Shown here: piece after piece, positions 536 through 8,774 of the stretch
Layout of the letters: every line of letters begins with the position of its first letter
How positions within the stretch are numbered: the first letter of the stretch is position 1
Assembly: GCA_035510465.1 (NCBI GenBank)
Contig: DATKHC010000001.1
Span: 6,799-70,798, forward strand
Reading direction: 5' to 3'
DNA length: 64,000 nucleotides
Source: Candidatus Saccharimonadales bacterium
Lineage (GTDB): Bacteria > Patescibacteriota > Saccharimonadia > Saccharimonadales > DATKHC01
Position numbers and translations under genes: made by a program
The notes under the pieces: generated by a model
What the model saw: the letters and a program-made list of their open reading frames with translations, nothing else
Databases searched by the model: none
Told to the model about the DNA's origin: nothing

Positions 536-2260
536 TTATGCCGGGGCGGCTTTTTGCTCTAAAGACTTAGCGTTGGCAGCAGGTACGGTATCTGCCGGAG
601 CTTGTTGGAGTTCAGTTTGGCGAATAGTAGGTATAAGTACGAAGAAGGTGCTGCCTTTGTTGAGTTCACTCTCAAACCAGATTCTACCTTTCAAATATTC
701 AGTTAGCCTTTTGGCTATATATAGACCCAAGCCGGTCCCACGAGTACGTCTCGTTCTGTAGTCTTCGGATCTGAAATATTTTGAAAAAATCTTCGTCTTA
801 TCCGCCCGACCAATGCCAACTCCAGTATCTTTAACCCTAATTTCCAGGTTGCCCTGGCTATCCAGATTAGCCGAGACAGTCACACTACCCTGTTCAGTAT
901 ATTTAAGCGCATTGTCTATTAGAATTTGGACTATTTCACGTATATAATCAGCAGAACTAACAATTGGTCTTAAGCTAAGACTAAAGTCTGTTATTAACTG
1001 AAGGCCGGCTGCTGTTGCTCTATCGTTATAGGTTTGGGTTATTTTTGCTAGTAGCCCAACTATATCCAAGCGTTCTATTTTGGTCTCTAAGCGCTGCTTT
1101 TCTGCACTCGCGAAGACAGTTAGGTCATTTATTAGATCTGCCAGTGACATTACGCTTTCATGAGCTTTTTCTATCATTTTTTTATCATCATCTTTAAGAT
1201 CTGTGATCATTTTAGGATTCATTAAAATTGACAAAGAAGCCTCCGCAGTCGCAATTGGAGTTCTAAGCTCATGTGAAGTTATAGATATAAACTCGCTTCT
1301 TTCCTCATCCAAAGTTTTCTGCTTTGTAATGTCTCTCAGCTGAACGATAAAACCACCTTCTCCCTCTTTGTTAATACCTAGGTTAATTGAAGTTACATTT
1401 ATATATAAATCAATTTTCTCGCCGTTCTTGCTTAGTAAGTGCATATCAGAGATCTCGAGGGTGTGGTTGGACTTACGAGCCAGCGCGAATAGATCGACAG
1501 GCTGTGAGGAATTGTCATAGATAGCCACCACATTACTAAACTGCTTGTCAATTAAGCTGGTCGGTTGATCCAACAAGCCCAATGATGAACGATTATGGAA
1601 TAGGATTTTCCCGGTTTTGTCTGCGGCAATAACCGAATCGGACATACTATTAATTAGCGAGCTAAGCTGTTCCCTTTCCAGCACTACATTTTGACTAATT
1701 TTTTGGAACTGTTGCCTAATTCCTTCGTCTACAGATCCAGCACGTTCAAAAATCCCTCCAAGCGCAATTACAAGTATCGCAGTAAAATACGGATACAAAT
1801 AACCATAACTAACTGTGGGCACCCCATCTTTAATAGTTGATATAACCACCAAAGCAACGACCGTTACAACGGATACAAGAAATGCTCCGTGACCACGATA
1901 GTAAATTGTTATAAAAAGAACCGGAGGTAGTATTAGAACAAACGGACTAAAGATAGGCACAAACCAAATCAGTAGAATAGATATAGCAAGGTTATAGACA
2001 ATCAAAGCACCCAGACCACCGCTGTTAAAGGTATCCCAGTCCTTGGTAACGGGCAGAAAGCGGCTAACCGCCTGAATAGTTATTAGACCAACGCCTATGG
2101 CAAAACCTATTAAGTCTGATGAATGAATCTGGTGATGAATGCCTTTAGTTAGGACGTAGTAGGCAATTATGGTCAGAACATAGATGGCTGTATTTACGTG
2201 AACAAGCGGATCATTAGATACCTTCTGATCAATCCGTTTAATGTTAAATTCCGGAATCAT
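536..2260 (-). CDS. membrane-bound sensor histidine kinase with a PAS-like domain
   Basis: Multi-TM N-terminus, PAS-like segment, H-box SHELRTPI, and a C-terminal HATPase region (DTGVGI, GTGLGL). Confidence 0.85.
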   Translation of the reverse strand: MIPEFNIKRIDQKVSNDPLVHVNTAIYVLTIIAYYVLTKGIHHQIHSSDLIGFAIGVGLITIQAVSRFLPVTKDWDTFNSGGLGALIVYNLAISILLIWFVPIFSPFVLILPPVLFITIYYRGHGAFLVSVVTVVALVVISTIKDGVPTVSYGYLYPYFTAILVIALGGIFERAGSVDEGIRQQFQKISQNVVLEREQLSSLINSMSDSVIAADKTGKILFHNRSSLGLLDQPTSLIDKQFSNVVAIYDNSSQPVDLFALARKSNHTLEISDMHLLSKNGEKIDLYINVTSINLGINKEGEGGFIVQLRDITKQKTLDEERSEFISITSHELRTPIATAEASLSILMNPKMITDLKDDDKKMIEKAHESVMSLADLINDLTVFASAEKQRLETKIERLDIVGLLAKITQTYNDRATAAGLQLITDFSLSLRPIVSSADYIREIVQILIDNALKYTEQGSVTVSANLDSQGNLEIRVKDTGVGIGRADKTKIFSKYFRSEDYRTRRTRGTGLGLYIAKRLTEYLKGRIWFESELNKGSTFFVLIPTIRQTELQQAPADTVPAANAKSLEQKAAPA

Positions 2261-2341
2261 GGCTTAATCATAAGCTATTTGGTCCCATACTTCTAGACTA
2301 TTAACAGGTTTAAAACCGAGTGATTGGCGGCAAAAGAATAA

Positions 2342-2902
2342 CTAGTCGGTTTGTTTTCTACGTTTGAGCGATTTGTCTTGCGTTTTGTTTATGCGTTTAG
2401 ATTGAGAAGCTAGTGTGTCGTTTAGCAGAGTCACTAGGCTTTTGGCGTGCTCAAGACTCATTCCTAACCTCGCTATAGGTTGAGGCTGAGAGTTATTAGA
2501 TGCCTGAGCACTTTGCATAAAATTCATGGTTATGCCAAAACTAGTGGAGTTTACGTGGACTTGGTCGGTATATATGACTTTGTTATCAATCGGGATCAAG
2601 ACTAGCATCGTTGGAGAAGCAGAAAGCCCAAAACCTCCAACCGTGGTTTGATCTTTGTCATAACCTGCAAGCTGCCAAAGTTTAAAAGCTTCGGAATTAT
2701 TTAGCTCGAAATGTCTAATTATAAGTATTAGAATGTCTTCGTTAGGTAGTTTTACGCCTTTTTCAATTCCAATTAGTAAGTGGGTATCAATTTCAACTGC
2801 ACCGGAAACCTCAGCCAGAGTTTCATGGCTTTTTTCGCGGAGACTTCTAATTTTATTGCCAAGTGATTTATAGGGGTACTTCGGAACAGAGTTGTTTGTC
2901 AT
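2342..2902 (-). CDS. XRE-family helix-turn-helix protein with an uncharacterised C-terminal domain
   Basis: N-terminal HTH (LRSLREKSHETLAEVSGAVEIDTHLLIGIEKG). The C-terminal half is unrecognised. Confidence 0.6.
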   Translation of the reverse strand: MTNNSVPKYPYKSLGNKIRSLREKSHETLAEVSGAVEIDTHLLIGIEKGVKLPNEDILILIIRHFELNNSEAFKLWQLAGYDKDQTTVGGFGLSASPTMLVLIPIDNKVIYTDQVHVNSTSFGITMNFMQSAQASNNSQPQPIARLGMSLEHAKSLVTLLNDTLASQSKRINKTQDKSLKRRKQTD

Positions 2903-2930
2903 CTAAAATATAATCTTACGCCGCCAACTG

Positions 2931-3980
2931 TTGGCATGCAATAATGACTTTATGAATATCTCAAAGAACGTTTCGCTTAAAAATTATTCGACTATGAAAC
3001 TTGGCGGTAACGCAAGTTACGTAGTTGAGATTGAAAACAAGGACGATCTAGTTCAAGCGTTTGATTTCGCAAAAACTAACAATTTGAAAACAATTGCTGT
3101 TGGGACAGGCAGTAACTTGGTTTGGCGAGACGAAGGTTTCGATGGCTTAATTTTGGTATGTAAAACGAAACGCTACGATGTTTTTCGAGAGGATGACACT
3201 AACTTCTATATCACAGTGGGATCAGGTGAAATTTGGGATGATATCGTAGCCCGAACAACCTCCATTAACTTAAGTGGCATCGAGCAACTGTCTTTGATAC
3301 CAGGTACAGCTGGAGCTGCTCCAGTTCAGAACGTTGGTGCATATGGTCAAGAACTGTCTAATGTTTTAGTTAGCGTGGAAGTTTTCGATCAAAAGATAGG
3401 TGAACTCGTTAATATCCGTTCAAGTGAATGTGGCTTTGGATATCGAACTAGTCGTTTTAAAACCACCGACAAAGGACGGTTTTTCATTACCAATATTGTT
3501 CTTCATTTAAATAAATCAAACCCTCAACCACCTTATTATTCCGCTCTCAAACAATACTTTGAAGAGCATAAAATAAGTGATATAACCCCCACTGTTGTCC
3601 GTGACGCCGTAATTTCGATCAGAAAATCAAAATTACCAGACGTTTCTAAGGTTGCTAATTGCGGGTCTTTTTTTACTAATCCAATAATTGATGGGTCAAA
3701 GCTTGAAATACTTCGTTCATCCTTCCCGGCAGTCCCTTATTGGGAAAATGGAGACAATAAATATAAAATATCTGCTGCCTGGCTGATCGAACAGCTTAAC
3801 TTCAAAGACTATCACGATAAAGAGACAGGCATGGCCACTTGGCCCACCCAACCACTTGTTTTTGTTAACGAACATGCCCAGTCTACTAGTGACTTACTAA
3901 AATTCGCCCAAAAAGTAAGTGGTGCTGTGGCAGCTAGGTTTGACATTCAACTTGCTCAGGAACCCGAACTGCTACCCTAA
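2931..3980 (+). CDS. murB: UDP-N-acetylenolpyruvoylglucosamine reductase
   Basis: FAD-binding MurB-like N-terminus (LKNYSTMKLGGNASY, GTGSNLV) and MurB C-terminal domain. The track start is TTG at 2931; the in-frame ATG at 2952 is the more likely start. Confidence 0.85.
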   Translation: MACNNDFMNISKNVSLKNYSTMKLGGNASYVVEIENKDDLVQAFDFAKTNNLKTIAVGTGSNLVWRDEGFDGLILVCKTKRYDVFREDDTNFYITVGSGEIWDDIVARTTSINLSGIEQLSLIPGTAGAAPVQNVGAYGQELSNVLVSVEVFDQKIGELVNIRSSECGFGYRTSRFKTTDKGRFFITNIVLHLNKSNPQPPYYSALKQYFEEHKISDITPTVVRDAVISIRKSKLPDVSKVANCGSFFTNPIIDGSKLEILRSSFPAVPYWENGDNKYKISAAWLIEQLNFKDYHDKETGMATWPTQPLVFVNEHAQSTSDLLKFAQKVSGAVAARFDIQLAQEPELLP

Positions 3981-3984
3981 ATAA

Positions 3985-5262
3985 TTACAAATCATTTGGT
4001 AGGGGAAATTGTAAACTAAACTCCGTGACAGTTTTTTTAAGTTCAGCTAGGGCTTTGGTATCTTCTCTTTTATCTATGGCTCGGCGCATCCAGTCGGCTA
4101 GAAGTGTCATGTGTTTTTCTGTCAGTCCTCTCGTCGTTATAGCAGGCGTACCAAGCCTGATGCCGCTAGGTCTAAAAGGCGGCAGTGGATCATTGGCGAC
4201 AGCGTTTTTGTTAAGCGTCAGTCCAATACTATCTAGCGCATGCTCAACAATTGAACCATCTAGGCCAAATGACTTATAAACATCGGTTAAAATCAGGTGA
4301 TTGTCTGTGCCCCCAGATATAAGCTGGAAATCTCGGCTAAGCATTTCTTTAGCTAGCGCATGAGCATTTTTAAGAATCATTGCCACATACTCCTTAAACT
4401 CAGGTTTCATAGCTTCCCCGAATGCTACTGCCTTAGCAGCAATTATGTGCATATGTGGTCCGCCTTGGATACCTGGGAAGACTGTCCTGTCGATTAACGT
4501 AGGTAGATTATCTATAGTTTTATCAACTTTTTTTAGTGGATTAGAAACGGTTCCCTGACTGAGTATTAAACCGCCTCTAGGGCCTCGTAGCGTCTTGTGG
4601 GTCGTGCTGGTGATCACATGAAAACCATAATCAAACGGGTTTTTGGCTACACCCCCAGCTATCAGACCGGCAATGTGCGCCATGTCGGCGACTAAAACAG
4701 CGTTAACTTCCCTGCCAATTTCTGCAAATTTTTGATAATTTAACTCCCTTGGGTAAGCACTAAATCCTGCCAATATAATTTTTGGTTTGTGTTCAAGCGC
4801 CAGTTGGCGAAGTTGTTCATAATCAATTTCTCCGGTCGAGGGATCTTTCATACCGTAGCGAATAAACTTAAACTGGTGAGCTAGAACGGTGACCGGAGCT
4901 CCGTGAGTCAAATGCCCACCATGACTCAGATCCATCGCCAAAATTGTATCGCCGGGTTCCATCCAGGCATGGAAAACTGCTTCATTAGCCTGAGCTCCGG
5001 AGTGAGGTTGAACATTAGCGTGATCTGCGTTAAATAACTTCTTAGCTCTATCAATTGCCAGCTGTTCGACTTTGTCCGTGTTTTCTTGACCGCCGTAGTA
5101 GCGTTTGCCCGGATAACCTTCCGAGTACTTATTTGTGAAAACACTACCCATAGCGGTTAGCACATCCCTGCTAACATAGTTTTCAGACGGTATTAACTCT
5201 AGTCCAGATTGCTGGCGCTTTAGCTCTGCTTTGATTAATCTTTCTACAATCTTGTCCTGCAT
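3985..5262 (-). CDS. glyA: serine hydroxymethyltransferase
   Basis: Full-length SHMT with the PLP-lysine region TSTTHKTLRGPRGG. Confidence 0.95.
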   Translation of the reverse strand: MQDKIVERLIKAELKRQQSGLELIPSENYVSRDVLTAMGSVFTNKYSEGYPGKRYYGGQENTDKVEQLAIDRAKKLFNADHANVQPHSGAQANEAVFHAWMEPGDTILAMDLSHGGHLTHGAPVTVLAHQFKFIRYGMKDPSTGEIDYEQLRQLALEHKPKIILAGFSAYPRELNYQKFAEIGREVNAVLVADMAHIAGLIAGGVAKNPFDYGFHVITSTTHKTLRGPRGGLILSQGTVSNPLKKVDKTIDNLPTLIDRTVFPGIQGGPHMHIIAAKAVAFGEAMKPEFKEYVAMILKNAHALAKEMLSRDFQLISGGTDNHLILTDVYKSFGLDGSIVEHALDSIGLTLNKNAVANDPLPPFRPSGIRLGTPAITTRGLTEKHMTLLADWMRRAIDKREDTKALAELKKTVTEFSLQFPLPNDL

Positions 5263-5383: not shown

Positions 5384-6901
5384 ATGCAAGCTAACGAAAA
5401 AATTGGCCAACTTATTTACCAAATAAGGCAAGAGCGAGGCTTAACTCAATCCGAGTTCGCCAGCAAACTTGGCACCAGCCAATCAGCCGTTAACCGAATT
5501 GAGCATGGCCGACAAAACTTAAGCCTTGATACTCTAGCTAGAATTAGCGACGTCTTAAATAAACAGCTAATTAGCTTAGAAGGTACCGCTGTTAATCTTC
5601 GTATTGAGGGAGGTCGTGAGCTACACGGAAGCGTGGCACTAAAAACTTCCAAGAACTCTGCTGTGGCACTACTTTGCGCAAGTTTACTAAATCACGGGGT
5701 AACAAGATTCAAGGCCTTTCCAAGAATTGAAGAAGTCTTTAGGATCATCGAAGTACTAGAAAGTATTGGTGTATCTGTTAAATGGCTACCAGGTAACGAT
5801 GTTGAGATCCGACGTCCAGCTAAATTGGATCTTACTCATCTGGACGCAAAAGCCGCCCGTCAAACCCGGAGTGTTTTAATGCTAATTGGGCCTCTCATTC
5901 ATGAGGCGAATAACTTTAAAATTCCTTACGCTGGCGGTTGCAAACTAGGACGAAGAACCGTTGCGCCTCACTTGTATGCCCTGGAGGAATTTGGGGTAAA
6001 TATAGTTGCAACCAGTGGTCACTACAACGTTCAGGTTCACAGAAAAAACCCAGAGCCATTTGTTATGTACCAAACTAGTAATACCGCTACTAATAATGTG
6101 CTGATGGCAGCCGCTTCAACTGCAGCCAAAACCACAGTCCAAGCCGTTAGCGGGGATTACATGGTACAAGATCTTTGTTTCTTCTTACAAAAGTTAGGAG
6201 TTAAGATTGACGGGATAGGCAGCCATTTTCTAGAAATTACTGGGGTACCAAAAATTAAAAAGAATGTTACTTTCGCCCCTTCAGAGGACCCCATTGAGGC
6301 TATGTTTTTCATAGCTGCGGCCGTCGCAACTAATTCTAAAATCACGGTTGAGAGAGTCCCTTATAAATGGATAGGTCTTGAGCTTCTAAAACTGGATAAG
6401 ATGGGCTTAAAGCTCAAACTATCTAAGCCTTACAAGGCAAATAATGGTATTGTCGATTTAACTGATATAACTGTTGGAAAACACAATGGTGAGCTAAAAG
6501 CACTGGAGGATAAAATCGAGCCAAATCTTTATCCCGGCATAAACCCCGATAATCTTCCCTACTTCGTTCCAATCGCTGCTATGTGCAAAGGCAGAACCCA
6601 GATCCAAGACTGGATGTATGAGAACCGGGCAATCTATTTCACTGAAATGACAAAAATCGGCATGCAAGTTGAACTAGCCGATCCGCATAGATTGTTTATT
6701 GACGGTCCAACTCGTTTTTCGAGAGGGGATGTAGTCTGTCCACCCGCCCTAAGACCAGCCAGTTTGCTACTAATAGGTATGTTAGCGGCTAGGGGTGTAT
6801 CAACCCTTAGAAGTGTATACACAATAAACCGTGGATATGAAGATTTGGCCGAAAGACTAAATTCTATCGGTGCTCAAATAACTGTTTTACACGAGCTCTA
6901 G
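5384..6901 (+). CDS. murA: XRE-type HTH domain fused to UDP-N-acetylglucosamine 1-carboxyvinyltransferase
   Basis: Residues 1-65 are an XRE HTH (GLTQSEFASKLGTSQSAVNRIEHG). The rest aligns with MurA: KTSKNSAV (Lys22 region), GGCKLGRR (Cys115 loop), YPGINPD (Asp305 region), and the C-terminal INRGYE. Confidence 0.85.
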   Translation: MQANEKIGQLIYQIRQERGLTQSEFASKLGTSQSAVNRIEHGRQNLSLDTLARISDVLNKQLISLEGTAVNLRIEGGRELHGSVALKTSKNSAVALLCASLLNHGVTRFKAFPRIEEVFRIIEVLESIGVSVKWLPGNDVEIRRPAKLDLTHLDAKAARQTRSVLMLIGPLIHEANNFKIPYAGGCKLGRRTVAPHLYALEEFGVNIVATSGHYNVQVHRKNPEPFVMYQTSNTATNNVLMAAASTAAKTTVQAVSGDYMVQDLCFFLQKLGVKIDGIGSHFLEITGVPKIKKNVTFAPSEDPIEAMFFIAAAVATNSKITVERVPYKWIGLELLKLDKMGLKLKLSKPYKANNGIVDLTDITVGKHNGELKALEDKIEPNLYPGINPDNLPYFVPIAAMCKGRTQIQDWMYENRAIYFTEMTKIGMQVELADPHRLFIDGPTRFSRGDVVCPPALRPASLLLIGMLAARGVSTLRSVYTINRGYEDLAERLNSIGAQITVLHEL

Positions 6902-6914
6902 TTTTAGATTTTAA

Positions 6915-6964
6915 CGCTTTCGTCCTTTTGGACTCATCAGCCTGAACATACATTCAGAGAGCAA
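6915..6964 (-). ncRNA. hammerhead ribozyme, type III topology (stem III open)
   Basis: Minus strand reads UGCUC^UCUGAA-UGUAUG-UUCAGG-CUGAUGA-GUCC-AAAA-GGAC-GAAA-GCG. Both catalytic cores are intact. Stem I is 6 bp and stem II 4 bp, both loop-closed. Stem III is 4 bp. The cleavage triplet is CUC, with C17 at 6959. Confidence 0.8.
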
Positions 6965-7052
6965 AGACAAGCAGAAAAAGTTGGTAAAGGAACAACCCAG
7001 GGGGCAGGATTGGGTTTTTCGCTTTAGTCAGCTCAATCTGCTGTCCTTGCTC
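6959..7052 (-). other. long imperfect RNA hairpin at the 3' end of the islet-1 transcript
   Basis: GAGCAAGGACAGCAGA (7052-7037) pairs with UCUGCUUGUCUUUGCUC (6975-6959). That gives 16 bp with one bulge and one G-U that is valid only on the minus strand. The inner hairpin is AACCCA/UGGGUU. Confidence 0.55.
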
Positions 7053-7095
7053 AGTACATGTCCTTCCGATAGGTTCTTTGTCTGTTGTTACCTCC

Positions 7096-7578
7096 TTAGG
7101 TAGTAGGCAAGGGACGGATTCCCTCGGGCCTGAAACTTGGCCTTGAGATGGCACGTCCTCGTTTTACGGTTCTTCCCCCGTGAGATCTCGTCGTCTTCCC
7201 GCGAGACGGTGTTGTTGGTTGCGTTGCCGCCTGATTGTTCTGTTGTTCCCCAAGCCTCCGAAGAAGCTCGTTTGCAGCAGATTGGCCATAGGCCTTGATG
7301 AAGCCCGTGAGGTGGATTTTTGTGCCTTCAAACCCGATATGGAGTTTGATTTTCCCCTTCCGGACCACTGTTACGCGGCCGCTGTGCTGCTTTGGTACGT
7401 AGCGCAGAGCTTCACCGGGTGTCATTTTCTTGAGCTCTCTTGGTACGAGGCGTCTCCTCACGTCATGCTGTCTGGTCGCGATGTCGGTCGCAATCAGAAT
7501 GGCATTCGTTCGGTGCCTTACAACTGGCTCTGGAATCTCCTTTGCGTCGGGCTCGATTTCCGATAACGTTGTCGTCAC
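7096..7578 (-). CDS. orphan hypothetical protein (160 aa, basic disordered C-terminal tail) in GC-richer islet 1
   Basis: GTG start preceded by GGGGAGAAGGG. The composition is protein-like, unlike the antisense ORF. No family recognised. Confidence 0.45.
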   Translation of the reverse strand: MTTTLSEIEPDAKEIPEPVVRHRTNAILIATDIATRQHDVRRRLVPRELKKMTPGEALRYVPKQHSGRVTVVRKGKIKLHIGFEGTKIHLTGFIKAYGQSAANELLRRLGEQQNNQAATQPTTPSRGKTTRSHGGRTVKRGRAISRPSFRPEGIRPLPTT

Positions 7579-7615
7579 GGTTTTGCCCTTCTCCCCTACC
7601 TAGGCTAACGGTGCC

Positions 7616-7702
7616 ATAGCTAAACTAAAGCTATCTGTGTTTCCTTTACACAGTGAGGTGAGGGGGAAGCCCGCAATTACTTGCGAACTTTCTTCTCACC
7701 TC
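7616..7702 (-). promoter_or_regulatory. structured 5' leader of the islet-1 ORF (three consecutive hairpins)
   Basis: Hairpins at 7655-7702 (GAGGUGAG/CUCACCUC enclosing CGCAA-GUAA-UUGCG with a GNRA loop), 7635-7653 (CUGUGU/ACACAG) and 7616-7634 (AUAGCU/AGCUAU). Confidence 0.4.
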
Positions 7703-7791
7703 ATGATTTCTGCTTGTCAAAATACATCTTTGGATACACTAGCAATATCTTCAAAACTTGAAAAATTTGTGTCTCAACAAAGAATTTAGTT

Positions 7792-7820
7792 AATCTACTC
7801 CCAACGTGCTTGTGTGTCAA
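7792..7820 (-). promoter_or_regulatory. putative promoter for the islet-1 transcript
   Basis: Minus strand reads TTGACA, 17 nt, TAGATT, immediately downstream of tRNA-His. Confidence 0.35.
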
Positions 7821-7828
7821 TAGGTCCT

Positions 7829-7903
7829 TGGGGTGTCCAAAGGGAATCGAACCCTCGTCGCCGCGACCACAGTGCGGAGCTTTACCACTAAGCTATGGAC
7901 ACC
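7829..7903 (-). tRNA. tRNA-His (anticodon GTG)
   Basis: Encoded G-1 opposite C73, acceptor GTGTCCA/TGGACAC, anticodon loop CTGTGGT, T-arm GAGGG-TTCGATT-CCCTT, encoded CCA. Confidence 0.9.
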
Positions 7904-8036
7904 AAAAATATTTCCTATTCCGTGGCCATATTATCACATACAGGCAGCCCCTTAAGAAAGACTGATAACTCAAGTCCGGAATAAAAATAAATGCTTGCAA
8001 GTACAATTTTCTAGGTATATACATATCATTAAAGGT

Positions 8037-8774
8037 ATGGGAGAAAGATTAGCAAAACTCACTAGGCCAAATAGAAGGTCAATGGTACTTAAGTCTCTAG
8101 GGGCCTTAACAGCTGTTTCGCTAGTCGGCGGCTGCGGAAGTGATATCCCAAATTTGGCTGGCTCAGTAGAGATACCAGCTAAATTTGTACCAGTAAATTG
8201 CAATAACACTTTAGAGGAAGCAGAAATTAAAGACAAGGTCGGAAGCCCAATAACACCTCCTGAAGAAGCTATAGATAAAAAAGTTTGCGAGACTGTTAAT
8301 GCCATCGGCAAACAAACCGTCAATAATAATCTTGAAAACCCTAATTTGTACCCGAACAATTCTGATTTCGGCGGGGAGATTGATTTCTTCCTCCAGACCA
8401 ACACCGGACCATATTCGGAGGTAGCATATGCGACTAACTCAAGGGGTGAGCCGATTTACTCTAAGCCACTATATACAATGGTGGGCAATCAATCAAATGG
8501 TATGAAAGGAGACATTGTAATTGTTGAGTCTTCTCCCATTACTCAGCCATTTACTCTGAATGGTACGACTGTGAACGCAACAGGTGTTCAATGGGATGAA
8601 TCTACTCAGGGGCAAGGTAGTCCTACGCCTACTAACTTTGACTCTCTAACCTTCCCGGAGTTCACTGGTGATAATCTAAGTCCTTTACAAATAGAACAAT
8701 CGGATCTGCAGTTATTGCAAATGTACCATCAAGTCTATGTGGATGAGCTTTTAATGTTGCACAATAACCATTGA
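8037..8774 (+). CDS. putative lipoprotein, function unknown
   Basis: Signal peptide with a lipobox-like SLVGGC. The track ORF starts at TTG 7995; ATG 8037 or ATG 8085 is the more plausible start. Confidence 0.55.
   Translation: MGERLAKLTRPNRRSMVLKSLGALTAVSLVGGCGSDIPNLAGSVEIPAKFVPVNCNNTLEEAEIKDKVGSPITPPEEAIDKKVCETVNAIGKQTVNNNLENPNLYPNNSDFGGEIDFFLQTNTGPYSEVAYATNSRGEPIYSKPLYTMVGNQSNGMKGDIVIVESSPITQPFTLNGTTVNATGVQWDESTQGQGSPTPTNFDSLTFPEFTGDNLSPLQIEQSDLQLLQMYHQVYVDELLMLHNNH

Follow-up and report, generated by a model that had tools for sequence, protein, structure and literature searches.

Hammerhead ribozymes and related RNA architectures

Hammerhead ribozymes of all three types have been reported in prokaryotic and phage genomes, often beside prophage genes (PMC3088659, PMC7761336), and catalogues of genomic copies from bacteria and phages go back to 2011, their purpose being still open (PMC6765202). 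In these organisms they cleave within long transcripts, and a role in the processing of polycistronic mRNAs has been proposed (PMC3088659, PMC6765202). The present report concerns a hammerhead on the minus strand of a 64,000-nucleotide (nt) stretch of contig DATKHC010000001.1 from a Candidatus Saccharimonadales bacterium (this whole stretch is referred to below as the window), where it follows a long hairpin and an orphan open reading frame (ORF), ORF160. No paper that connects hammerheads with Saccharibacteria, Patescibacteria or the candidate phyla radiation (CPR) came up in a literature search. The element is a lineage-specific new variant of a known ribozyme class, set in a conserved three-part RNA architecture that frames orphan genes and that appears to be undescribed.

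The closest described systems are the type III hammerheads of bacteria and phages (Perreault et al. 2011, PMC3088659; PMC7761336; RF00008), with which the window motif shares the core, the NUH cleavage site, the three-helix junction and the stem topology, as well as the dimensions of stem I (6 base pairs (bp) and a 6-nt loop) and of stem II (4 bp and a 4-nt loop). The setting is also alike, namely intergenic, beside small accessory or phage genes, sometimes with several copies per locus, and with cutting of polycistronic RNA as the proposed role. In contrast to these relatives, all of the family loci scored here, 15/15 including the window, fall under the RF00008 threshold (26-46 bits vs 48.5), and the chromosomal subfamily to which the window copy belongs uses the triplets CUC, CUU or CUA, not GUC. 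This subfamily further differs in sitting among the housekeeping genes of Saccharibacteria-like chromosomes and in carrying a conserved hairpin of ~94 nt that mimics stem III, accompanied in a subset of loci by a complementary 5' box.

A second set of parallels is found in the hammerheads of viroids and satellite RNAs and in retrozymes (PMC4918200, PMC7761336), which are likewise of type III with a short stem III, and whose substrate strand is locked in a stabler rod or hairpin, thereby confining catalysis to a transient fold and disfavouring religation after cleavage. Viroids and retrozymes are circular or long terminal repeat (LTR)-flanked RNAs with paired ribozymes and rolling-circle or retrotransposition cycles, whereas here a chromosomal protein-coding unit has one ribozyme at its 3' end; neither a second ribozyme nor any sign of circles was seen. 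The glmS ribozyme and the twister and hammerhead processing of 3' untranslated regions (UTRs) are also comparable, since cleavage leaves 5'-OH and 2',3'-cyclic-phosphate fragments that differ in stability and whose fate is shaped by a flanking hairpin (PMC6765202). The glmS ribozyme is ligand-dependent and lies in the 5' UTR; here, by contrast, the ribozyme comes after the gene, the protective hairpin would belong to the upstream product, and competing RNA helices, not a metabolite, would exert control. Synthetic insulators such as RiboJ provide comparable ribozyme-defined mRNA ends.

Short perfect duplexes that bracket a functional RNA across hundreds of nt are known from the RNase III stems flanking rRNAs and from 5'-UTR/3'-UTR pairing in bacterial mRNAs. 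Unlike RNase III stems, the duplex described below abuts the stem III of a self-cleaving ribozyme and competes with a local mimic hairpin. Promoter plus stem-loop units that frame variable orphan ORFs, with exchange suggested and without a ribozyme, are found in the hyperplastic regions of T4-type phages, as promoter-stem-loop (PeSL) cassettes. Conserved flanks frame variable orphan ORFs in the present family as well, but with a ribozyme, and recombination through the flanks is here a suggestion.

A type III hammerhead downstream of ORF160

By direct reading, the minus strand from 6965 to 6913 is UUUGCUC/UCUGAAUGUAUGUUCAGG/CUGAUGA/GUCCAAAAGGAC/GAAA/GCGUU, and it contains the following parts.

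6913..6965, minus strand: type III hammerhead unit, 53 nt (direct reading, Rfam RF00008, model R2, shuffles, covariation)
6959/6958, minus strand: predicted cleavage, 3' of C17 (6959) in a CUC triplet
6963-6960, minus strand: stem III 5' strand UGCU, also the base of the long hairpin
6918-6915, minus strand: stem III 3' strand AGCG, with A15.1 at 6918 (direct reading)
6958-6953/6946-6941, minus strand: stem I, 6 bp, UCUGAA/UUCAGG (direct reading)
6941..6958, minus strand: stem I with loop 1, whose sequence UGUAUG fits the family consensus UGNNUR
6940-6934, minus strand: catalytic core strand CUGAUGA (C3-A9; direct reading)
6933-6930/6925-6922, minus strand: stem II GUCC/GGAC, with loop 2 AAAA (6922..6933 in all; direct reading)
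6921-6918, minus strand: GAAA, of which 6921-6919 is the core GAA (G12 A13 A14; direct reading)

All 13 core nucleotides are canonical (C3 U4 G5 A6 N7 G8 A9 and G12 A13 A14 among them), H17 is not G, and the two closing pairs G10.1-C11.1 and A15.1-U16.1 are present, the latter formed by A6918 and U6960. Stems I and II are loop-closed while stem III is open, which is the type III topology. Stem III consists of 4 bp between 6963-6960 and 6918-6915 (A-U, G-C, C-G and a final G.U), and stem I may gain a seventh pair, U.G, between 6952 and 6947. Two positions of loop 1, U14 and G15, are nearly invariant across the family described below, and loop 2 is AAAA throughout; in hammerheads, a tertiary contact between these two loops allows fast cleavage at physiological Mg2+. 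Judged by its sequence, the segment 6965..6913 is a bona fide type III hammerhead ribozyme, for which cleavage is predicted. A complete hammerhead of this type had been proposed in a preliminary description of this DNA, every listed element of which was confirmed nucleotide for nucleotide.

A chance origin of the motif is excluded: a relaxed type III scanner gives a single match in the window, and 300 shuffles of it that preserved dinucleotides (64 kb, both strands) gave none. A covariance model built solely from phage copies of the family, hereafter R2, gives 59.5 bits for the window (E = 2e-14) and 68.7 bits for L002, the orthologous copy described in the next section; over 843 kb, R2 found no further match at E < 1 beyond these two.

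A large family with covarying helices

Because ORF160 is without homologues, the neighbouring murA gene was used as the route to relatives, and 80 Saccharimonadales loci (L002-L081) were fetched through it. The murA relatives are Saccharimonadales metagenome-assembled genomes, in agreement with the CPR-like chromosome that the preliminary description had surmised. One of these loci, L002, carries an orthologous ribozyme on the minus strand, 5 nt from the murA stop, with identical core, stem II and loop 2 and with compensatory changes relative to the window in both informative helices (C-G to A-U and G-C to A-U in stem I; G-C to A-U in stem III). The ribozyme is present in just 2 of the 81 related murA loci; a metagenomic locus, L214, is a third case of a murA-adjacent ribozyme.

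Beyond murA, the family is large. The exact 23-mer CTGATGAGTCCAAAAGGACGAAA was found in 36 IMG/VR viral contigs, almost all of which hold complete type III hammerheads, and the form present in the window, a 24-mer with a final G, was found in at least 120 metagenome contigs. Among the metagenome matches listed, ~110 are type III hammerheads with a CUC, CUU or CUA triplet and the same stem I and loop 1 proportions. All members share the core, stem II and loop 2 sequence CUGAUGAGUCCAAAAGGACGAAA; as the 23-mer was the search key, these parts match by construction, and it is stems I and III and loop 1 that are independently informative. In these helices covariation is strong. In the alignment of 29 phage copies, pairing holds in 97.9% of cells and 124 cells show double changes, a level reached by 0/500 shuffles; in that of 84 distinct chromosomal-type copies, the window among them, the values are 97.4% and 306, again reached by none of 500 shuffles. 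Stem I is 99.8% paired in the 84 chromosomal-type sequences, and sliding the 3' partner by 1-3 columns in this set cuts pairing to 32-46%.

The genes near chromosomal-type copies (RuvX, YceG, Obg, Mur ligases, FtsA/FtsW, ClpP, ATP synthase, sortase, T4SS_pilin) are cellular housekeeping genes with a CPR flavour, not phage structural genes. Convergent ORF stops lie within 15 nt of the ribozyme in 20 of ~100 unique loci, as they do in the window, and co-directional ORF starts lie within 150 nt of it in 49 of ~100, so that both contexts are common. Most phage copies have an upstream ORF whose stop precedes the cut by 26-64 nt, and in about half the next gene begins 19-30 nt after the ribozyme.

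These relatives bear on two further claims of the preliminary description. It had been implied that the context is unique or unprecedented, which does not hold, given an identical core in 36 viral and at least 120 metagenomic contigs and the hammerheads already reported from prokaryotes and phages. The neighbouring tRNA had also been cited as a feature of the context, and this is not shared by the family, only 14/113 loci having a tRNA within 2 kb, which is not above expectation (38 tRNAs in 699 kb). Overall, the earlier interpretation is partly supported, being right in its essentials and overstated on uniqueness.

A hairpin that competes with stem III

The ribozyme is directly preceded by a second structured element.

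6959..7052, minus strand: long imperfect hairpin, 94 nt, ~-40 kcal/mol (folding), whose 3' arm ends at C17

A 211-nt fold containing this hairpin has z = -4.05, and the predicted 5' cleavage product folds to a blunt hairpin of -40 kcal/mol with G7052-C6959 as its last pair. The preliminary description had the predicted cut coincide with the final paired nucleotide of a long 3' hairpin, which is supported. Nucleotides 6960-6963 are common to the hairpin base and to stem III, and the folds bear out the earlier proposal that the two structures contest them, in a design that recurs in L002, where the long hairpin (z = -7.1) ends in the stem III 5' strand. The 5' arm of the window hairpin (7052..6959), GAGCAAGGACAGCAGA, mimics the stem III 3' strand plus a distal sequence, the 5' box described below. 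In 13/13 loci inspected, the stem III 3' strand is copied at the start of the 5' arm, which beyond this mimic runs on, in the loci inspected, as a G.U-wobbled copy of the 5' box. The recurrence of the copied strand makes the competition between hairpin and stem III look recurrent and selected. Of the switch that had been suggested on the basis of this competition, the competition itself is borne out by the mimicry in 13 loci, whereas the two-fold scheme falls short in having overlooked a third partner, the 5' box at 7718..7707.

The hairpin is a family-wide feature, of which the window is a typical case. Over the 160 nt before the cut, 98 chromosomal-type loci have a median z of -3.5 (82% below -2); their terminal hairpin spans 93.5 nt at the median, with a median energy of -37 kcal/mol. 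Of the basal hairpin pairs 10.7% are G.U, and the ribozyme-strand fold is more stable than that of the opposite strand in 66/98 loci (Wilcoxon p = 4e-5). This G.U share and strand bias point to an RNA-level structure rather than to a DNA palindrome or a terminator for convergent genes. In phage copies, a short GC-rich hairpin fills the gap between stop and cut and often pairs the stem III 5' strand plus H17 (for example GACGGA...UCCGUC in L105).

Two known classes of hairpin were considered for 7052-6959 and rejected. A Rho-independent terminator does not fit, as the sequence that follows, UCUGAAUG, has no U tract and a terminator scan gives the inner stem 7012-6993 alone; nor is a U tract found after the hairpins of the phage family. 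With no U tract and with a ribozyme positioned for the cut, the hairpins would shield a 3' end only if the RNA is cut there. An integron attC site does not fit either, the ends GAGCAAGG...CUUUGCUC lacking, as read by eye, the core sites R' (GTTRRRY) and R'' (RYYYAAC), with no integrase among the neighbouring ORFs.

A distal box, a structured leader and variable cargo

The remaining parts of the unit lie within the hairpin 3' arm and upstream of it on the same strand.

6966..6977, minus strand: 3' box UUUCUGCUUGUC, in the hairpin 3' arm, 7 nt 5' of the cut; a conserved sub-family motif
7096..7578, minus strand: orphan ORF160, 160 amino acids, GTG start, with the Shine-Dalgarno-like GGGGAGAAGGG upstream; variable cargo
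7616..7706, minus strand: structured leader with hairpins H1 (7703-7654), H2 (7653-7635) and H3 (7634-7616), homologous to the L002 leader
7707..7718, minus strand: 5' box GACAAGCAGAAA, upstream of ORF160, with UU before it giving TTGACA
7792..7820, minus strand: promoter-like TTGACA-17-TAGATT, a consensus match only and a candidate transcript start, just downstream of tRNA-His

The 5' box is a perfect 12-nt complement of the 3' box, from which it is 729 nt apart. The hairpin 3' arm has, in consequence, two alternative sets of partners, because the local 5' arm copies both the stem III strand and the 5' box. The ~120 nt after the 5' box form three hairpins and are homologous to the region upstream of the unrelated L002 ORF. 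By iterated nhmmer, this leader was found in 10 hammerhead loci (the window, L002 and 8 metagenomic loci), always upstream of a variable ORF. In 10/10 of these leader-bearing loci the 5' and 3' boxes are complementary over 10-12 nt with sequences that differ from locus to locus, that is, they co-vary; among the pairs are TGACAAGCAGAC/GUCUGCUUGUCA, CAGGCAGUAUU/GAUACUGCCUG, GACAAUAUGAG/CUCAUAUUGUC and GACAGACAGGC/GCCUGUCUGUC. Across the family, 17/47 loci have, 250-1450 nt upstream, a stretch of at least 10 nt perfectly complementary to sequence within the 30 nt that precede the cut, as against 2/61 in an equal downstream control.

Between leader and ribozyme, the content varies. The window and L002 show similarity limited to these two elements, with none detectable between them, and the L002 cargo is an unrelated 145-amino-acid orphan ORF that precedes the hairpin. 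A search of 5.8 billion proteins with ORF160 returned only ORF160 itself, the sole other contig (L001) being of the same genome, which is present in the Logan run SRR8676596, and no match was obtained against Pfam, NCBIfam or PHROG. Across the family, 77/94 upstream ORFs are singletons, ~75/86 have no Pfam match, and PHROG gives almost nothing on cargo ORFs. That only the leader and ribozyme are similar, and that the upstream ORFs are mostly singletons without a Pfam match, argues that a conserved frame carries interchangeable cargo. Of the upstream ORFs of L118-L237, 2/86 match the Pfam family Tad4, a Thoeris inhibitor with an anti-defence role. The ORF160 segment looks compositionally foreign: its GC content is 0.54 vs 0.42 in the flanks (0.53-0.55 over 7000-7600), and the minus strand of 7000-7600 is strongly A-rich, with an AT skew of -0.38. 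In relatives, a tRNA often lies within a few tens of nt after murA (tRNA-His at +4 in L024 and at +56 in L070); since a tRNA directly follows murA in many of them, the murA-tRNA-His segment of the window is read as an insertion or variable island.

A model for 3'-end formation

Taken together, these observations make it probable that the hammerhead, which belongs to a large family, constitutes the 3' end of the transcription unit of ORF160, leaving a hairpin-capped end upon cutting, and that it is part of a three-partner switch. The most likely role of the ribozyme is that it defines the 3' end of the ORF160 message. The unit would consist of the promoter-like site at ~7800, the leader with its box (7718-7616), ORF160 (7578-7096), the 94-nt hairpin (7052-6959) and the ribozyme. 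RNA polymerase would read through hairpin and ribozyme toward the convergent murA; formation of stem III (6963-6960 with 6918-6915) would allow a cut after C6959, and the freed upstream RNA would end in a 2',3'-cyclic phosphate. The decoy 5' arm could then recapture the stem III strand and C17>p in a blunt hairpin, which would make the cut irreversible by preventing religation and would protect the 3' end from exonucleases. The downstream RNA, antisense to murA, would begin with a 5'-OH and no longer be joined to the message.

Before cleavage, the same hairpin would sequester the stem III strand and keep the ribozyme off. The 5' box (7718-7707) could pull the 3' arm out of the hairpin, freeing stem III and turning the ribozyme on. 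In this on state the 3' arm would pair with the distal 5' box and with the ribozyme's stem III strand, the box helix abutting stem III. An extension of this model, offered tentatively and itself rather doubtful, is that the whole is a portable CPR expression frame made of leader and 5' box, a swappable orphan gene, a G.U-rich decoy hairpin and a hammerhead end, in which a strand-exchange switch would time the cut of the message, and possibly end-joining, while the flanks would allow genes to be swapped.

Several observations weigh against the ribozyme-made 3' end and its control by competing helices. With respect to the motif, the Rfam model Hammerhead_3 (RF00008) gives only 28.2 bits (E = 9e-4; 801 nt, 4227 families), for a gathering score of 48.5, and at gathering threshold Rfam reports tRNAs only in the whole window, with no hammerhead. 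The type III covariance scan that the preliminary description had called for is in this sense a near miss, the score falling short although the model aligns the motif end to end. The other 14 family loci are likewise all below 48.5, at 26-46 bits (L112, L114, L110, L089, L115, L122, L124, L128, L139, L146, L150 and L214 among them), and since 14/14 fall short, the deficit reflects the model's seed and not the motif. Stem II contributes nothing to the covariation, being invariant by construction of the search. The window copy is moreover a weak member of its family, with the sole U.G at 1.1-2.1 among 84 sequences and a stem III of just 4 bp that ends in G.U and is followed by a U.U mismatch.

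Folding raises a further difficulty: the hairpin (off) fold is favoured by 14.6 kcal/mol (-55.0 vs -40.4, in nearest-neighbour energies that leave out tertiary contacts), so that efficient cleavage is not guaranteed, and the hairpin is transcribed before the ribozyme. In 62% of loci, against 45% of shuffles, pairing of the product's 3' tail reaches to within 2 nt, which is only a modest enrichment. As to the boxes, the 5' box overlaps TTGACA and, if this were a true -35 element, would lie outside the cassette's own transcript; no sigma-70 -10 element is seen by eye at a fixed distance after it, the spacing to a conserved GGUGAG being ~13-24 nt. The ten box duplexes hold a single G.U pair in ~110 bp, which also fits an inverted repeat at the DNA level.

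With regard to the purpose of genomic hammerheads, this locus and its relatives offer a concrete and testable design. A hairpin that copies the stem III strand, always placed before the ribozyme and often joined by a distant complementary box, suggests a regulated and irreversible formation of mRNA 3' ends that replaces classical termination. The large subfamily lies in CPR-like chromosomes, where none was reported in the literature searched, and standard annotation based on Rfam would miss the whole family. The frame carries a stream of orphan genes, including the two Tad4-like ORFs of the 86 and, at one locus, a Csx3-like ORF and a helicase, and may help to explain how novel genes are acquired and expressed. 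Its importance would rise substantially if either the strand-exchange switch or the cassette exchange were true.

Alternative explanations

One alternative is that the conserved frame works primarily as DNA, in the manner of a mobile or recombinogenic regulatory cassette whose inverted repeats or flanks are recombination handles, terminal repeats or inversion sites by which orphan genes are swapped or flipped, with the ribozyme as one of the portable expression signals. Such a frame would resemble the PeSL cassettes of T4-type phages. The murA-tRNA-His segment is an insertion with respect to relatives whose tRNA lies 4-56 nt after murA, its GC departs from that of the flanks (0.54 vs 0.42), and 2/81 related species carry the ribozyme unit; the window and L002 have leader and ribozyme in common and nothing between, and the upstream ORFs elsewhere are singletons (77/94) or lack a Pfam match (~75/86). 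The box termini are TG...CA, and the box duplexes are nearly all Watson-Crick (one G.U in ~110 bp), compared with 10.7% G.U in the local hairpin. When considered as a transposon or miniature inverted-repeat transposable element, the unit has a perfect 12-bp inverted repeat, but it shows no target-site duplication by eye, it is present once in the 64-kb window, and its ribozyme lies outside the repeats, which it nonetheless always accompanies. No recombinase or transposase gene is found in or beside it, its orientation is the same in all assemblies, and there is neither terminal redundancy nor an association with tRNAs; integrase-type attachment (att) repeats of the tRNA-His 3' end were not found. 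A DNA-level role is on balance unlikely to be the main one. It is compatible with a catalytically active ribozyme, and the two readings do not exclude each other.

Loss of activity is a different matter. A decaying remnant of phage or other foreign DNA, catalytically dead and with its sequence kept without function, is an improbable reading of the motif, although the window copy ranks low in its family (59.5 bits vs 68.7 for L002, the U.G at 1.1-2.1, the 4-bp stem III), its off-state fold is strongly favoured, its cargo is an orphan ORF of foreign composition, and dead copies do occur elsewhere (two with U4 -> C in L188). The motif retains its 13 core nucleotides, both closing pairs and the loop-1 signature, and the hairpin mimic and the 12/12 box complementarity are intact too; relative to L002 the helices have been kept by compensatory changes, although no similarity is detectable in the insert around them. 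An RNA of retrozyme or viroid-like kind, circular or end-joined, in which the boxes would clamp the ends and an RtcB-type ligase or the reverse reaction would join the cyclic phosphate end, is a purely structural inference and very improbable. It would account for the box helix abutting stem III, for a hairpin 5' arm that looks like a stem III 3' strand fused to a 5' box, two elements that a circular or tandem arrangement would bring side by side, and for the loci, L214 among them, in which 2-3 hammerheads of the same orientation flank genes. In the window no further ribozyme precedes ORF160 (by Rfam at E up to 10 over 7000-8300, and by R2), so that nothing defines a 5'-OH end, and contigs shorter than 4 kb show no terminal redundancy indicative of circular forms. 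On the same two grounds, a viroid-like, retrozyme or Obelisk-type element was rejected. A chance match to the hammerhead consensus, finally, could invoke the score below the Rfam gathering threshold, and it is effectively refuted by the 0/300 shuffles, by an orthologous copy with compensatory changes, by 59.5 bits with an independent phage-derived model, by the covariation among the 84 chromosomal-type sequences and by the shared accessory architecture.

Genomic surroundings and further observations

The genes on either side of the unit are the following.

5384-6901, plus strand: HTH-MurA fusion, the convergent gene (NCBIfam NF006873, 302.9 bits for a cutoff of 297; Pfam HTH_3 and EPSP_synthase)
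7902..7829, minus strand: tRNA-His

The murA stop is separated from stem III by 13 bases (6902-6914). The N-terminal XRE-type HTH of MurA covers residues ~8-62, and the fusion, an unusual architecture for an essential cell-wall enzyme, is kept in at least 80 Saccharimonadales genomes with 70-78% identity. Across Saccharimonadales, the murA/tRNA-Gly/tRNA-Arg/tRNA-His region is a hotspot of rearrangement, with insertions of 0.2-4 kb and with varying tRNA order and orientation. A blastn comparison of the unit with phage genomes gave no match.

In several family loci, among them L214 at the same murA locus, genes are flanked by 2-3 hammerheads that share one orientation. Over positions 1913-4600, L214 holds a Csx3-like ORF, a hammerhead (2320-2372), a variant hammerhead with a GUC triplet and stem II CGCC/GGUA (2436-2488), a DEAD/DEAH helicase (2513-4387), a hairpin, a further hammerhead (4436-4488) and a convergent murA, such that ribozymes flank a defence-like gene. 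The cargo ORF of L162 matches PHROG 'secreted protein' families. In L163, positions 311-421 of the minus strand match the Rfam model of a plant microRNA precursor, MIR1862, with 51 bits (gathering score 84), which is almost certainly a false positive caused by a long hairpin, the contig being bacterial. The tandem copies of L188 were considered for the order 'ribozyme then 5' box' and were uninformative, two of the three stemming from a recent 442-bp duplication with U4 -> C. These two copies, at 6473-6525 and 6915-6967 in a 442-bp direct repeat, read CCGAUGA and are probably inactive; the third, at 8300-8352, is canonical.

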